DNA of 32,000 nucleotides from an uncultured bacterium (lineage in GTDB: Bacteria > Babelota > Babeliae > Babelales > Babelaceae): positions 370,154 to 402,153 of the forward strand of contig OY970209.1 of NCBI GenBank assembly GCA_963713855.1, in the 5' to 3' direction. Shown piece after piece: positions 15,863 to 19,542 of this stretch (position 1 is its first letter; each line of letters starts with the position of its first letter). The position numbers were made by a program, and so were the translations under genes. The notes beneath the pieces are model-generated. The model had not been told where the DNA came from. It saw only the letters and a program-made list of their open reading frames with translations, and made no database searches.

Positions 15863-18800
15863 CTACACGATGCTATTCATCGGCTGTTCAGTGCCATCAA
15901 AATGAACACTGCCCCCTGGATGCCTAAACATATATTTATAGAATGCAAAGCTTACAGCAGCCGCTGTTCCTGCGCCTATAATAAAGGCGGCGGGAACGCC
16001 TAACGATACACCAAGAGCAATCCCGAGCGTAGTTGTGCCACCATCGCCCGATTGAACAGCTCCGCTATTAGTACCGCTCGAGCCGGTACCAAGCAACGAC
16101 CCTAGAGACACATCATTTGAATCAAAGTTAGCAGTTGCTAGATATTCAGTACTGACGGTGCCGTTATTGGGAGCAAAAACGAGTGCAACGCATTTAGTGG
16201 AATTTCCTGGCAAAGGGTATGAGGACGCTTGATTAAAACTACCACTAGTAAGATTAAAAACAGTAAAGCTACTTGATCCGCTATTGGCAGTAGCAAGATA
16301 GCCGCCGTTTGACGAAGCTGCTATCGATTGCGGATTAAAAGACCCTGCAGGCAAAGAATACGATTTTCCAAACCCTAAGCTCGTTTGCTGAACAGGAAAT
16401 ACGCTAATATCATTCGAGCCGCTATTTGCCGTGACAAGCGCCAATTGAGTGGGACTGACCGGTAAAAAAATAACCGCCTGGGGCCCGGTCGATCCCGTCG
16501 GCAAGGAAGTGATACTTCCACCTGAAAGAGCCCCTTGTAAAAATTGAAAGAGCGCGACATTGTTCGTACCGAAATTGGCAGTGGCGAGCAAAGAACCATC
16601 AGAACTAAAAGCCAGCGCCTCTGGCGTCGTTGCTCCGGCGGGAAGCTTATAGGCAATCCCATTGCTCAAAACTCCATTAGCTACCTGAAAGACTGCCACG
16701 TCATTTGAACCGCTATCAGCAACAGCAAGATATAGGTCACCAGGAGCAAACTGGATAGCAGCAGGAACGGTTGATCCAACGGGCAATGCATACGAAAGAG
16801 CTCCGATCAATTGTCCTCCAGCAACCTGGAAAACGCTTACATCATTTGTTTTTTGGTTAGCAGTAGCCACATAAACACCATCTGATGTAAATGCTACCGC
16901 AATCGGAAGAGAAGGCGTAACCCCATTATACGGTAATGGGTATGATCTTTTAGTCCCGAGAGCAAACACATTGCCCGTTGAGTTAGTATTAAAAAGGGTA
17001 ACATCGCTGGTAGCATAATTTGCTGTTGCCAGATAGGCAAGGTTCGACGAAAAAGCAACGGCATTCGGCTGGCGCGAACCTTTAAAGAGTGGCGGTAAAG
17101 TATAAATGGCGCCAGTATTTAATGCTCCACCAGTAACGTTAAAGATAATAATCTCAGACTGGGACCGATCGGTTAATGCCAAGTACAATCCGTTGGGAGA
17201 AAAGGTAATTGTCTCCCCATAAGATGTTCGAGGGGGCAATGGATATTCAGTTTGATTGGTCAACACCCCACCGGTACCCACCGTAAAGACTATCACAAAT
17301 CCAAGACCATTAGCGAAAATATATGAAGCAATAGCAAGATAGGTGCCCGATGGAGAAAAAACCAACGAATAAGGGCTTGCACCACTATAGAGAGCATAAG
17401 ACTGTGCACCACTCAAGGCTCCTCCCCCTCCCACCTGAAAAATAGTAAGGTTTTCAGAATCCACACAACCGACGGCAAGAAGCGTATTATCAGGCGAAAA
17501 TGCTATAGTAAGCGGGTGAGCAGATCCTGTGGGTAATGCGTATGATGTTGGCGTGCCCAAAACTCCACCGCTTTGAATAGGAAAAATCGTTACATCATTC
17601 GATGATTCATTGGCTGTTGCAATATATGACCCATTGGGCGAAACAGTCAAAGCACGAGGAAGCGTAGAGCCAGCTGGCAATGAGTATGAAGTAGGGTTAC
17701 TTAAAACTCCACCGGACCCAACGCTCCATACAACAAGCGTGCCTACGAAGGTCGAGGTAACAAGATATGATCCGTTGGCAAAAAACGCTAGAGCTTCAGG
17801 ACCTGAGCTACCACTCGGAAGCAAATAGGAGGTTCCATTAGTAAGCACTCCTTGGGCTTGGACCGTGAACATGGTTATCGTATTAGCTTGGGTGTTTGCA
17901 GTAGCAAGATATGACCCATTTGGAGAAAATGCCAATGCATAGGGCTCTATCGAATCAGAAAAGACGGTATACGCAGTTCCATTAGTAAGAGCACCAGTTC
18001 CTCCAACAGTAAATACCGCTAAACCGTTTAAGTTATAATTAGCAAGAGCAAGATAACTGCCTGATGGCGCAAAAGAGACAGAACGCGACTGCGTCAAACC
18101 GGCCGGAAGGCCATACTGAGTAAGGTTGGCCAAAACGCCTCCTGCTTGGACATCAAAGGTCACAACAACCCCCGAGATCGATGTAGCTGCAAGATAAAGA
18201 CCATTGGGTGAAAATGATACTGCGTAAGGATTGCCGACGGGCCCATACGATGCGGCTCCACTAAGTGTGCCATTTCCGTTAACAGTAAAGACCGTTACAT
18301 CGCTCGAATTGAAGTTTGCAGTAGCCAGATAAGCACCACTGGGTGAAAATGTTACCCAGGTCGGCTGGGTCGAGCCGACAGGCAATGCGTATGATGCTCC
18401 GGCGCTCAGGACACCTGATTGAAATGAAAATACCGTCACATTGTTAGTACCAGAATTGGCGGTGCCAACCAAAGAGCCTGAGGGAGAAAAAGCGAGTGAA
18501 AAAGGTTGAGTCGCGCCGGAGGGTAACGCATATGATATCGGATTGATCAAAGTCCCCTGGGAACTTAAAGTAAAAACCGTGAGATCACTCGAGTTGTAAT
18601 TAGCCGTAAGGACGTATTGCCCCGAGGGAGAAAAAGTTATCGATTCCGCAGTGCTTGAGCCAGAAGGCAGTGTATAAGAAACCCCGCCTTCCAATGCTCC
18701 TGTCTGACTAACGCTAAAAAGGGTCACATCGTTTCCATTAGCGCTAACCAGATACGAGCTATCAGGTGAGAAAGCAAGTGCCGCCGGAAGTACAGAGCCC

Positions 18801-19186
18801 AGCGGTAAGGCATAAGGAACGCCATTACCAAGTACGCCATTAGCGCCTACCGGAAAAATAGTGATATCTGCTGAATTATAATTTGCAGTAGCAAGATACA
18901 AACCATTTGGAGAATACACAGCTGCTATGGGCTGCGTTGCACCTTGGGGTAATAGATACGAAGCCCCGTCATATAAGTTGCCACTCGTATTTACATTAAA
19001 TACTGACACGTCATTGCGATTCGCGGTAGCCAACAAATTGCCACTGGGGGAAAATTGTGCCTGAGTAGGCCAGCCTGAGGCACCTGGCAAAGGGTAACTT
19101 TCTTCGCTCAGAAGCACTCCCCGTAGTCCCAGTACCCAAAACATTATCAAGATAAACAACACATAAAGACGATTTACGGCAAACAT
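15863..19186 (-). CDS. 21-blade beta-propeller repeat protein (lactonase/YVTN-like) with an N-terminal signal peptide and a C-terminal TM anchor
   Basis: 1107-aa ORF with signal-like MFAVNRLYVLFILIMFWVLGL. I count 21 units of about 48 aa with consensus SY-LP-GS-P-ALAFSP-G-YLATAN--SNDVTVF-V---G-LS. These are followed by a Gly/Ser linker, a hydrophobic LGIALGVSLGVPAAFIIGAGTAAAVSFAFY segment and a 24-aa tail. Confidence 0.9.
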   Translation of the reverse strand: MFAVNRLYVLFILIMFWVLGLRGVLLSEESYPLPGASGWPTQAQFSPSGNLLATANRNDVSVFNVNTSGNLYDGASYLLPQGATQPIAAVYSPNGLYLATANYNSADITIFPVGANGVLGNGVPYALPLGSVLPAALAFSPDSSYLVSANGNDVTLFSVSQTGALEGGVSYTLPSGSSTAESITFSPSGQYVLTANYNSSDLTVFTLSSQGTLINPISYALPSGATQPFSLAFSPSGSLVGTANSGTNNVTVFSFQSGVLSAGASYALPVGSTQPTWVTFSPSGAYLATANFNSSDVTVFTVNGNGTLSGAASYGPVGNPYAVSFSPNGLYLAATSISGVVVTFDVQAGGVLANLTQYGLPAGLTQSRSVSFAPSGSYLALANYNLNGLAVFTVGGTGALTNGTAYTVFSDSIEPYALAFSPNGSYLATANTQANTITMFTVQAQGVLTNGTSYLLPSGSSGPEALAFFANGSYLVTSTFVGTLVVWSVGSGGVLSNPTSYSLPAGSTLPRALTVSPNGSYIATANESSNDVTIFPIQSGGVLGTPTSYALPTGSAHPLTIAFSPDNTLLAVGCVDSENLTIFQVGGGGALSGAQSYALYSGASPYSLVFSPSGTYLAIASYIFANGLGFVIVFTVGTGGVLTNQTEYPLPPRTSYGETITFSPNGLYLALTDRSQSEIIIFNVTGGALNTGAIYTLPPLFKGSRQPNAVAFSSNLAYLATANYATSDVTLFNTNSTGNVFALGTKRSYPLPYNGVTPSLPIAVAFTSDGVYVATANQKTNDVSVFQVAGGQLIGALSYALPVGSTVPAAIQFAPGDLYLAVADSGSNDVAVFQVANGVLSNGIAYKLPAGATTPEALAFSSDGSLLATANFGTNNVALFQFLQGALSGGSITSLPTGSTGPQAVIFLPVSPTQLALVTANSGSNDISVFPVQQTSLGFGKSYSLPAGSFNPQSIAASSNGGYLATANSGSSSFTVFNLTSGSFNQASSYPLPGNSTKCVALVFAPNNGTVSTEYLATANFDSNDVSLGSLLGTGSSGTNSGAVQSGDGGTTTLGIALGVSLGVPAAFIIGAGTAAAVSFAFYKYMFRHPGGSVHFDGTEQPMNSIV
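16103..19102 (-). repeat. coding tandem repeat array (21 propeller blades, ~144 nt each; boundaries approximate)
   Basis: The blade core YLATA is encoded by an exact recurring 14-mer, GCAGTAGCAAGATA on the plus strand, at 16287-16300, 17898-17911 and 18885-18898. Many near-copies occur. The units are diverged at the DNA level. Confidence 0.8.
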
Positions 19187-19542
19187 GGATAACTTCTCCC
19201 TTACAGTCCTGAAAGACTAATTTAACGGCCTATTATAGTGAGCACTCCCTGGTTTGTCTAGCCAGCTCGATACGTCATGGGGCTATAAAAGTCAATCAAA
19301 CAAATTGACCAGCACGTATTTAAGTTGATCTATCCAATTAGCTAACATAATTACGCTCTACTTCAGCAATGCGATTTCTACAGCTCAGCCAGATGGGGCG
19401 ACTGCCCTCCTCGGTTATCTGTGCTCATCGAACAGAAAATAGTGAGTGAAGAAGTCTCTAATTGCATGTTAGATCTTTCAGAATGTGCTTTTGGTGCTAT
19501 ACTCTTACTGTGCGTACTTGGTTTATATTGCGAGGAATACTT

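Follow-up and report, generated by a model that had tools for sequence, protein, structure and literature searches.

A predicted 21-blade, membrane-anchored propeller protein of an uncultured Dependentiae bacterium belongs to a large paralogous family whose anchor resembles that of eukaryotic type-I glycoproteins

The window analyzed here, a 32,000-nt stretch of contig OY970209.1, derives from an uncultured Dependentiae bacterium (TM6, Babeliales-like), whose IF2 has Candidatus Babeliaceae and Dependentiae as nearest named relatives. Dependentiae are widespread parasites of protists, almost none of them in culture. Cultured members are Sec-reliant intracellular parasites of protists (PMC6561590). 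The reverse strand of the window encodes a 1107-residue protein, P0001, whose features are listed from the 5' end of the gene.

19232..19260, (-): promoter-like TAGACA-17-TATAAT, 11/12 positions; no more than a match to the consensus, with the ATG about 46 nt downstream
19194..19202, (-): Shine-Dalgarno-like AAGGGAGAA, 7 nt before the ATG, from the upstream sequence
15863..19186, (-): complete P0001 coding sequence, 1107 aa plus stop codon, from the ORF list and translation
19106..19186, (-): predicted signal peptide, residues 1-27 (n-region MFAVNR, h-region LYVLFILIMFWVLGL, c-region RGVLLS)
19076..19102, (-): lone N-terminal fourth strand, ESYPLPGAS, residues 29-37 (unit HMM)
18092..19069, (-): predicted propeller 1, blades 1-7, residues 40-365 (unit HMM, AF2, Foldseek)
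17090..18088, (-): predicted propeller 2, blades 8-14, residues 367-699 (unit HMM; AF2 pLDDT lower, about 50-88)
16079..17068, (-): predicted propeller 3, blades 15-21, residues 707-1036 (unit HMM; AF2 pLDDT about 85-95)
16028..16078, (-): Gly/Ser/Thr linker, residues 1037-1053 (sequence; AF2 pLDDT below 50)
15941..16027, (-): predicted TM segment, residues 1054-1082, LGIALGVSLGVPAAFIIGAGTAAAVSFAF, with a small-xxx-small (glycine-zipper-like) pattern; AF2 helix 1067-1086
15866..15940, (-): conserved 25-aa tail, residues 1083-1107, YKYMFRHPGGSVHFDGTEQPMNSIV, predicted to lie on the cytoplasmic side (conserved in the alignment)

The TAGACA-17-TATAAT element is the best promoter-like site of the region; such sites are in total no more numerous than expected by chance, and terminator-like and promoter-like sites in the flanks of the gene also occur at chance level. 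As the sequence-only reading had described, a pentapeptide-ankyrin gene lies downstream and ogg is divergent. The flanking gaps hold only short ORFs, which are probably spurious. An Rfam search of these gaps returned no RNA element at E ≤ 0.1. Direct repeats within the gene are 60–77% identical at the DNA level and are spaced by multiples of 141–144 nt; TRF detected no tandem array. An identical protein is also encoded on a separately assembled 39-kb contig, which argues against mis-assembly. The earlier proposal that the array is old, and neither a recent expansion nor an artefact, is supported.

An HMM of the repeat unit, built from P0001 itself, located 20 complete units of 45–48 aa (residues 40–997), a final unit without a fourth strand (residues 1000–1036) and a lone fourth strand, SYPLPGAS, near the N-terminus (residues 29–37). 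P0001 thus comprises 21 three-strand sets and 21 fourth strands, giving the 21 blades counted in the sequence-only reading. Pfam Lactonase (PF10282) matched the protein in seven stretches with 209 bits (E=1.5e-61; gathering score 21.7), in agreement with the proposed lactonase kinship. The YVTN repeat model, TIGR02276, gave no match among the NCBIfam results at E ≤ 1. WD40 (PF00400) reached 78.7 bits when summed (cut-off 27), with no single stretch passing, a likeness at the level of the superfamily. The nearest solved sequences are the 7-bladed lactonase-like propellers 4qrj, 3fgb and 3scy.

AF2 modeled residues 26–366 (blades 1–7) as one compact domain (pLDDT 94.9, pTM 0.91). With this model, Foldseek retrieved whole 7-bladed propellers, namely 1ri6 and 6nau (TM 0.73–0.75 for these two), 3fgb, 3scy, 4qrj and 6igb, and the superpositions have TM-scores of about 0.7 over about 320–335 columns. 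In the full-length model, each unit of the all-beta P0001 contributes four strands, and a helix follows at the C-terminus. Foldseek matched this model to multi-propeller proteins; the pTM of 0.43 leaves the mutual arrangement of the three propellers not fixed. Propeller 3, whose last blade has no fourth strand, is of the membrane-proximal module type. The lone N-terminal strand may close a ring in the manner of a 'velcro'; this role is suggested by a pair of conserved cysteines in the 7- and 14-blade paralogues (Cys about 25 and Cys about 355–366), which fits ring closure after seven blades. In the AF2 model of P0001, residues 29–37 are not placed as a strand and do not close a ring.

The propeller array is bracketed by sequences characteristic of a type-I membrane protein. 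At the N-terminus a basic n-region (MFAVNR) leads into a hydrophobic core of 15 residues, and a site of small residues precedes E28; AF2 places a helix at residues 2–19, and the paralogues align at the predicted cleavage site A-(I/L)-(S/T)|E-(V/I)-S-Y. The topology is likewise predicted. Together with the AF2 helices, these features agree with the type-I layout proposed earlier (a signal peptide, a single C-terminal TM helix and a tail), except that the tail, which begins YKYMFRH, is 25 aa long and not 24.

No bacterial anchor known to us accounts for this C-terminus, as the sequence-only reading had also concluded. A Pfam scan detected no autotransporter domain, the C-terminus being a single alpha-helical TM segment plus tail. 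The C-terminal 70–83 aa matched no NCBIfam model at E ≤ 10, those for sortase (LPXTG), exosortase (PEP-CTERM) and rhombosortase (GlyGly-CTERM) substrates included, and Sortase, Exosortase_EpsH and Rhomboid had no match in the 91%-complete genome, so that both a known sorting signal and shedding were rejected. A lipoprotein was rejected as well: P0001 has no lipobox and no Cys before residue 574. Many of its shorter paralogues do carry an N-terminal Cys, yet with atypical residues at the -1 position. N-glycosylation was a further candidate that we discarded, with 19 sequons in P0001 against 16 +/- 3.4 in shuffled sequences and 733 in the family against 765 expected; STT3 was not found in the genome search.

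The genome encodes BamA and LspA. BamA indicates that an outer membrane is present, and an outer membrane combined with the predicted type-I topology places the propellers in the periplasm unless a further step exposes them. Searches of Pfam, NCBIfam and the genome yielded no outer-membrane translocation domain or sorting enzyme for P0001. The earlier designation of P0001 as a surface protein is therefore unsupported.

P0001, which had been taken for a singleton, is one of about 74 paralogous ORFs that together occupy 142,770 bp, or 9.4% of the 1.52-Mb genome, in which a search gave 159 matches. Roughly 48 of the ORFs are intact and about a third are fragments, and many members sit in one genomic island. 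We define the Dependentiae multi-propeller anchor family by three features: a signal peptide, lactonase-type blades in multiples of seven, and an anchor composed of a G/S spacer, a GxxxGxxxG-like TM helix and the tail motif YKY..R.R..GSVNF.G.E...L. P0001 has all three. From end to end it can be aligned with 18 paralogues, to which it is 43–53% identical, and all structural hallmarks are kept. A search for related loci with P0001 alone gave a single Saprospiraceae match, which is irrelevant.

Blade counts in the family are 7 (16 genes), 14 (12 genes), 21 (13 genes, plus five with 20) and 28 (one gene). This quantization supports reading P0001 as 3 x 7 blades. Propeller modules are position-specific across paralogues, and the type of P0001 propeller 3 recurs as the last propeller of the 14- and 28-blade members. 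The family counts, the AF2 model of the first module and the Foldseek superpositions thus support the proposal that the 21 blades of P0001 are arranged as three 7-bladed propellers of the lactonase type.

The family genes arose by old whole-gene duplication and have diverged to about 45–55% identity, while blade cores, TM helix and tail were conserved. No DNA segment shared by a paralogue pair exceeds 86% identity over 72 nt, and the upstream regions are unrelated, with no shared sequence among paralogues. Variation by cassettes or gene conversion is therefore unsupported, and no sign of recombination or of a switching system was seen. Nor do we claim hypervariability of a single propeller face, because the variable positions fall on both faces. 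In the family tree the two species of the genus are interleaved, with P0001 pairing with G000:614231 (100/100), and family members turn over between the sister species. The sister species, G001, has no positional orthologue of P0001: its M16 peptidase orthologue (60% identity) adjoins neither a propeller gene nor ogg.

In the family alignment, the glycine-zipper TM helix and the tail (YKY..RHR..GSVNF.G.E...L; family tail consensus YKYxHRHxxGSVNFxGxE...L) form a conserved module, to which the TM segment of P0001 belongs (module A2; E=1e-24 against the anchor profile). The module is present in 2 of 261 genomes of the phylum, both from this genus, with two further marginal matches. All 42 anchor-bearing ORFs of the genome encode propeller proteins. 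Leu is the last residue in 28 of the 43 anchor ORFs; in G001, most tails terminate in -EL or -DL.

A search of 1.84 billion representatives with the anchor gave only 33 matches. P0257, P0260, P0264 and others carry the module without propellers, and it occurs on sequon-rich type-I proteins of eukaryotes. Comparison of the Dependentiae and eukaryotic anchors by hhalign gave a probability of 97.4% (E=9.7e-12), and BLASTP gave 25/61 identities, including LGxIIGTTVG and SVNFDGTES; the similarity extends over no more than some 60 residues, and the TM helix makes up about half of that length. One carrier lies on a Cyanidioschyzon merolae contig, a gene neighboring P0282 is identical to C. merolae CMQ170C at 403/404 positions, and the P0260 contig bears a copia-type Pol fragment. 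The search with P0260 also matched P0290, a Kelch-like-repeat tail protein of a phage, which was set aside as irrelevant. Judged from sequence, the anchor module is homologous to the TM helix and tail of eukaryotic type-I glycoproteins, including Cyanidioschyzon merolae genes. An exchange of the module between a eukaryote and the Dependentiae lineage, with fusion to propeller arrays, is therefore probable. The remark in the sequence-only reading that P0001 has a eukaryotic receptor-like layout was more literal than meant. We know of no description of the eukaryotic tail motif, and our literature search found no paper linking Dependentiae to propeller or lactonase families, or to Cyanidiophyceae, and none of the sample accessions turned up in it.

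As to the direction of transfer between eukaryote and bacterium, which we infer, a possible though doubtful version is that the genus captured a eukaryotic (Cyanidioschyzon-like red-algal) type-I TM helix and tail and fused them to 7-, 14-, 21- and 28-blade arrays. The resulting chimeras, roughly 40 in number, would be mimics of host receptors or would be sorted by the host through VNF...L-COOH. If so, one could also read from the anchor which host or habitat the uncultured lineage has.

We consider it fairly probable that P0001 is a Sec-exported, type-I anchored protein with three propellers, and that its family is a diversified repertoire for binding and host contact built on an anchor shared with eukaryotes. 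P0001 would be exported by Sec and lose its signal peptide, leaving three tandem propellers of the lactonase superfamily (PF10282) outside the cytoplasmic membrane, followed by a short Gly/Ser linker, one glycine-zipper-like TM helix and the conserved 25-residue tail. The family is assembled from seven-blade modules in four sizes of one, two, three or four propellers. Most likely the propellers would serve as non-enzymatic binding platforms, so that the family would equip the parasite envelope with a diversified set of proteins for recognition or adhesion in contact with the eukaryotic host. Through the conserved anchor, members would insert into the membrane in a common way, associate helix to helix and share a tail signal. 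The anchor would have been exchanged between a eukaryote and the bacterial lineage and fused to propeller arrays.

Several observations used above can be read differently. The presence of BamA and LspA, the predicted topology and the lack of a translocation domain or sorting enzyme would also fit inner-membrane proteins that face the periplasm, with an envelope-internal role such as scaffolding, quality control or the capture of polymers or metabolites taken in from the host, no direct host contact, and a family size that reflects partitioning of substrates; some lactonase-family propellers, such as PpgL (6igb), are indeed periplasmic. We think such a role unlikely, because about 74 paralogues at ~50% identity that fill 9.4% of a reduced genome and turn over between sister species form a pattern of interface or host-interaction proteins and not of housekeeping, because G001 has no positional orthologue of P0001, and because the anchor is common to eukaryotic surface glycoproteins. 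That last homology, together with the conserved extreme C-terminus and its predominant Leu ending, could instead mean that the proteins are brought into a membrane derived from the host, where they would imitate its type-I receptors; host cytosolic sorting would read the captured TM helix and tail (VNF...acidic...L-COOH), and the propellers would face either the lumen or the parasite. Export of numerous effectors with Sec signals and shedding of vesicles are described for Dependentiae (PMC6561590). However, no route is known that would bring a Sec-inserted inner-membrane protein into a host membrane, the tail is predicted to face the bacterium's own cytoplasm, and the motif has no known function in any eukaryote; we regard this scenario as less likely still.

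The match to Pfam Lactonase, the automatic annotation of many homologues as '6-phosphogluconolactonase' and the putative lactonases among the closest PDB sequences raise the question of whether P0001 could be a 6-phosphogluconolactonase-like enzyme, one of the lactonase / 3-carboxymuconate cycloisomerase family, that by chance was triplicated and tethered. This is very improbable: equivalog scores in NCBIfam fall far below their cut-offs (PRK11028, 108 bits against 370; PGL_lacton_Staph, 44 against 500), identity to lactonases is about 20%, and the protein is predicted to be exported and membrane-anchored, with three tandem propellers and about 74 divergent paralogues. We give almost no weight to a mis-assembled array or a decaying pseudogene. 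Although repetitive genes can be mis-assembled and fragments make up about one third of the family, the repeats are too diverged at the DNA level to collapse, the same ORF occurs on an independent contig, and the ORF of P0001 is intact, with a Shine-Dalgarno and a promoter-like site and every structural hallmark conserved.

Since this one family takes up 9.4% of a 1.5-Mb genome, it very probably has a central part in how the lineage lives. With their strict modularity of 7, 14, 21 and 28 blades, its members show in a clean natural case how proteins with several propellers grow. Among the 261 phylum genomes searched, the anchor occurs in one genus alone, yet it is common to eukaryotic (red-algal) type-I glycoproteins; module exchange or mimicry between eukaryote and parasite rarely leaves so concrete a trace. 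The anchor also provides a testable handle on the host or habitat of the lineage and on a eukaryotic tail motif.

P0001 shares its superfamily, the seven-blade fold and four strands per ~47-aa unit with PF10282 propellers such as E. coli YbhE/Pgl (1ri6), Klebsiella Pgl (6nau), the Bacteroides proteins 3fgb, 3scy and 4qrj, and Pseudomonas PpgL (6igb). Those known proteins are single-domain soluble enzymes of about 330–360 aa, whereas P0001 has three propellers in tandem, is predicted to be exported and TM-anchored, and is massively paralogous. The archaeal surface-layer YVTN propeller-PKD protein of Methanosarcina (1l0q), rank 18 among the Foldseek matches to blades 1–7 of P0001, uses the same broad 7-bladed class as a cell-surface module, but with a TM-score of 0.55–0.62 and an rmsd of 10 Å, without a YVTN model match in P0001, and with a different organism, envelope and mode of anchoring.

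Chlamydial Pmps form a large, old and diverged paralogue family that fills several percent of a reduced intracellular-parasite genome and combines repeated beta-structure with a common membrane-attachment part. The P0001 family resembles them in being large and old in a reduced genome, in its repeated beta-structure and in its shared attachment part. Pmps, however, are type V autotransporters with a beta-helix passenger and an outer-membrane barrel, whereas the P0001 family lacks a barrel, its propellers being joined to one alpha-helical TM anchor that ends in a tail. Giardia VSPs and Trichomonas BspA-like proteins combine a signal peptide and a variable repeat ectodomain with a TM helix and cytoplasmic tail that are highly conserved across dozens of paralogues. 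They are eukaryotic, with Cys-rich or LRR ectodomains, and expression switching is documented for the VSPs; the P0001 family has the same layout, but no switching machinery was seen. The eukaryotic carriers, from Cyanidioschyzon merolae-like red algae and further metagenomic eukaryotes (P0260, P0275, P0279, P0282, P0264, P0267 and others), have in common with the P0001 family a juxtamembrane spacer followed by the TM helix (LGLIIGTTVGI...), a basic stretch and the tail motif [SG]VNF(D/S)G.E...[DEQ]L. Their ectodomains are unrelated to P0001, being Kelch, RCC1 or unassigned folds with 13–17 N-glycosylation sequons, and their genes are eukaryotic, none with a described function.

The 1107-aa reading frame recognised by eye was recovered by ORF calling and translation, with the following features upstream of it:

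window 15863–19186, minus strand: coding sequence of the propeller protein P0001, 1107 aa (ORF call and translation)
7 nt upstream of the P0001 ATG, minus strand: Shine-Dalgarno-like AAGGGAGAA (upstream sequence)
window 19232–19260, ~46 nt upstream of the ATG, minus strand: near-consensus sigma-70-like promoter TAGACA-17-TATAAT (promoter scan)

The promoter-like site sits in the divergent intergenic stretch between ogg and P0001 and is the top-ranked site of the region; because site counts in the scan are at chance level, it is a consensus match only. With an HMM trained on units of the protein itself, 20 full units of 45–48 aa each are resolved, spanning residues 40–997. The last unit (residues 1000–1036) lacks the fourth strand, and a solitary fourth strand, 'SYPLPGAS', occupies residues 29–37, immediately C-terminal of the signal peptide. 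Three-strand sets and fourth strands thus number 21 each in P0001, which gives the 21 blades counted in the sequence-only reading. The array matches Pfam Lactonase PF10282 (209 bits, E=1.5e-61), in line with the lactonase-type likeness noticed in the units, and the closest solved sequences are the seven-bladed lactonase-like propellers 4qrj, 3fgb, 3scy, 6nau, 6igb, and 1ri6.

The proposed folding of these blades into three seven-bladed propellers is supported by blade numbers, by module order, and by modelling. Blade counts in the family of lactonase-type ORFs of the source genome are quantised independently of any model: 7 (16 genes), 14 (12), 21 (13, plus 5 with 20 detected), and 28 (1). The seven-blade modules are position-specific among paralogues, first module pairing with first module, and a single type of final module is common to 14-, 21-, and 28-blade proteins. 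Residues 26–366 of P0001, modelled alone (39 sequences), reach a pLDDT of 94.9 and a pTM of 0.91 and match complete seven-bladed propellers end to end (1ri6 and 6nau, TM 0.73–0.75, ~335 columns); further structural matches include 3fgb, 3scy, 4qrj, 6igb, G-beta, and the archaeal S-layer YVTN propeller 1l0q. The full-length AlphaFold2 model, computed from an alignment of 19 paralogues, has an all-beta fold in which each unit contributes four strands, plus a helix near the C-terminus (1067–1086); its mean pLDDT of 76.3 and pTM of 0.43 leave the mutual arrangement of the domains unfixed. In Foldseek, this model comes closest to multi-propeller proteins (LRP2, tandem WD40 pairs, and DDB1). A Cys pair is co-conserved in 7- and 14-blade members, one Cys lying just ahead of the lone N-terminal strand and the other just past strand three of blade 7; we infer a disulfide that locks the ring shut at exactly seven blades. 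P0001 lacks this pair, and its N-terminal strand is not modelled as a strand by AlphaFold2. Variable positions among the family propellers are not limited to one propeller face, which weakens the binding-platform reading given below.

The N-terminus of P0001 opens with a basic n-region; a hydrophobic core of 15 residues and then a small-residue site follow, and the paralogues align at the putative cleavage site A-(I/L)-(S/T)↓E-(V/I)-S-Y. At the C-terminus, a Gly/Ser linker precedes a 29-residue hydrophobic segment and a tail that opens with the basic and aromatic YKYMFRH, which, by the positive-inside rule, implies an N-out/C-in orientation. The predicted topology, with a signal peptide and a single C-terminal TM segment, agrees with the type-I layout suggested earlier, except that the tail has 25 rather than 24 residues. 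The label 'surface protein' found no support. The genome encodes BamA and LspA, so the organism is a diderm, and the predicted place of the propellers is the periplasm, barring some exposing step.

P0001 has 159 matches within its genome (G000, a single contig of 1.52 Mb). A census with the unit HMM, counting ORFs of at least 100 aa, found 74 family ORFs that total 142,770 bp, or 9.4% of the genome; ~48 look intact and about a third are fragments. The family genes are clustered, but P0001 is an isolated outlier away from the clusters. Representative loci are:

G000:C1:1063007-1066321: 21-blade family gene interrupted by two stop codons (TGA and TAA), leaving ORFs of 646 and 411 aa
G000:C1:1100000-1162000: island with ~46% family coding DNA on both strands and other signal-peptide ORFs in between
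G000:C1 813505-814698, 1233057-1234316, 1234629-1235912, and 1430832-1432067: examples of single-propeller paralogues

Paralogues are 43–53% identical to P0001. No pair of them exceeds 86% DNA identity over 72 nt, and the upstream regions of family genes are unrelated, with no common sequence; a recombining cassette system is not supported. The family is an old, stable repertoire. Charged residues are scarce, with a median D+E+K+R content of 6.2% in the family and 5.1% in P0001, compared with 22.9% in other ORFs of at least 250 aa; exposure to an acidic habitat could account for this. The single-propeller paralogues (~380–430 aa) lack the TM anchor and end in a Thr-rich linker and a ~20-aa amphipathic helix. 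They share a conserved Cys pair at ~25 and 355–366, probably a ring-closing disulfide, and their signal peptides finish in an atypical Cys-containing site, so that they could be lipoproteins.

The closest named relatives of the window's IF2 are Candidatus Babeliaceae and Dependentiae (51–54% identity). A comparable family expansion is present in G001, a sister species of the same genus (59 matches), and a smaller one in G008, from another genus (25 matches); most relatives in the phylum have few or weak matches. In a tree of 29 twenty-one-blade proteins the two sister species interleave, with species-specific duplications in addition, and P0001 is sister to G000:614231 (support 100/100) on long branches. 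P0001 and ogg flank an M16 peptidase gene in the window. Neither a propeller gene nor ogg lies beside the G001 orthologue of this peptidase (G001:C2:578000-593000), and P0001 thus has no positional orthologue in G001. This G001 region, a turnover hotspot for effector-like genes, also holds two giant ORFs (1455 and 1030 aa) that weakly resemble the pentapeptide-ankyrin protein of the window in their ankyrin repeats.

A C-terminal anchor module is common to all multi-propeller members; the alignment divides it into four parts:

part 1: G/S-rich spacer, terminating in GDGSS
part 2: 'LPLGVIIGTTVGVP...', a small-xxx-small, glycine-zipper-like TM helix
part 3: 'YKYxHRHxx'
part 4: 'GSVNFxGxE', followed by 4–10 residues

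Of 43 anchors, 28 terminate in Leu; in G001 most tails of the family finish with -EL, -DL, or -SL. NCBIfam sorting-signal models do not match the module, and sortase, exosortase, and rhomboid were not found in G000. Among 261 genomes of the phylum, the anchor profile is present only in G000 and G001, with two marginal hits elsewhere; within G000 it is confined to propeller proteins (42 ORFs). In public sequencing runs, a third related species has a similar anchor on the protein P0002, which comes from the same two runs as an IF2 81% identical to that of the window. Run ERR11571144 contains the genome studied here, and runs SRR6913656 and SRR12244810 contain its relative.

Searched against 1.84 billion representative proteins (E<=1e-3), the anchor profile gave only 33 hits. 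Propeller fragments of this lineage make up about half of them. The rest lack propeller units and keep the spacer, the TM helix ('LGLIIGTTVGI', 'GLIIGVAVAVPVAV'), the basic stretch, and the tail ('KSVNFDGTESN...DQL', 'GSVNFSSHDQL', 'AVNFEPDENDDQL'). Aligned by hhalign to the C-terminus of one of them, P0260, the profile scored a probability of 97.4% (E=9.7e-12), and BLASTP of one paralogue's anchor gave 25/61 identities with P0260, including LGxIIGTTVG and SVNFDGTES. Relatives of P0260 are type-I proteins with 13–17 N-glycosylation sequons each; P0275 has Kelch repeats, and one cluster-mate of P0273 bears the annotation RCC1 propeller protein. P0282, likewise type-I and sequon-rich, has a tail with VNFDGSE. 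The algal anchor-sharing proteins also appear charge-poor when their sequences are read.

The P0260 contig bears a copia-type Pol fragment (SH3_retrovirus domain), the gene adjoining P0282 on its contig (JGI 3300050388) matches CMQ170C of Cyanidioschyzon merolae at 403/404 positions, and several P0260-type members share one end point directly ahead of the VNF motif, the pattern that read-through into an intron would produce. Together, these observations identify the non-propeller anchor-carrier genes of the P0260 type as eukaryotic. The C. merolae-like assignment of the P0282 contig comes from the single CMQ170C match, and the CMQ170C-like gene has different neighbours on different contigs, so this locus may be multi-copy or variable. 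On sequence grounds the anchor probably shares ancestry with a eukaryotic TM-plus-tail module.

The most economical reading is that the propellers would form a diversified set of putative binding platforms, tied to the membrane by the common anchor and used at the parasite–host interface. Such platforms would fit the known biology of cultured Dependentiae, which are intracellular parasites of protists, have a large proteome exported via Sec signal peptides, and shed vesicles (PMC6561590; PMC4776705). Heading four alternatives, the family proteins may act inside the periplasm, where the propellers of P0001 are predicted to lie. Next, they may be inserted into host membranes as receptor mimics that exploit the eukaryotic tail.

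That P0001 is a lactonase enzyme, as its Pfam family might suggest, is unlikely: its equivalog scores fall far under the cut-offs, and neither its architecture nor its paralogy matches such a role. The last alternative, an artefactual array, conflicts with the DNA. TRF detects no tandem repeats in it, its direct repeats, spaced by multiples of 141–144 nt, are 60–77% identical, and an identical protein is encoded on a separately assembled 39-kb contig. These data argue for an old array, as originally supposed, and not an assembly artefact.

The propeller domain of P0001 is itself ordinary. What is new is the triple-propeller type-I architecture, its topology being predicted, the strictly modular 7/14/21/28-blade family, to which so large a share of a reduced genome is devoted, and the anchor, which is limited to one genus yet eukaryote-like. 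The searched literature yielded no description of this architecture, family, or anchor; the family belongs to a broader known class, the expanded interface families that intracellular bacteria build from repeat proteins.
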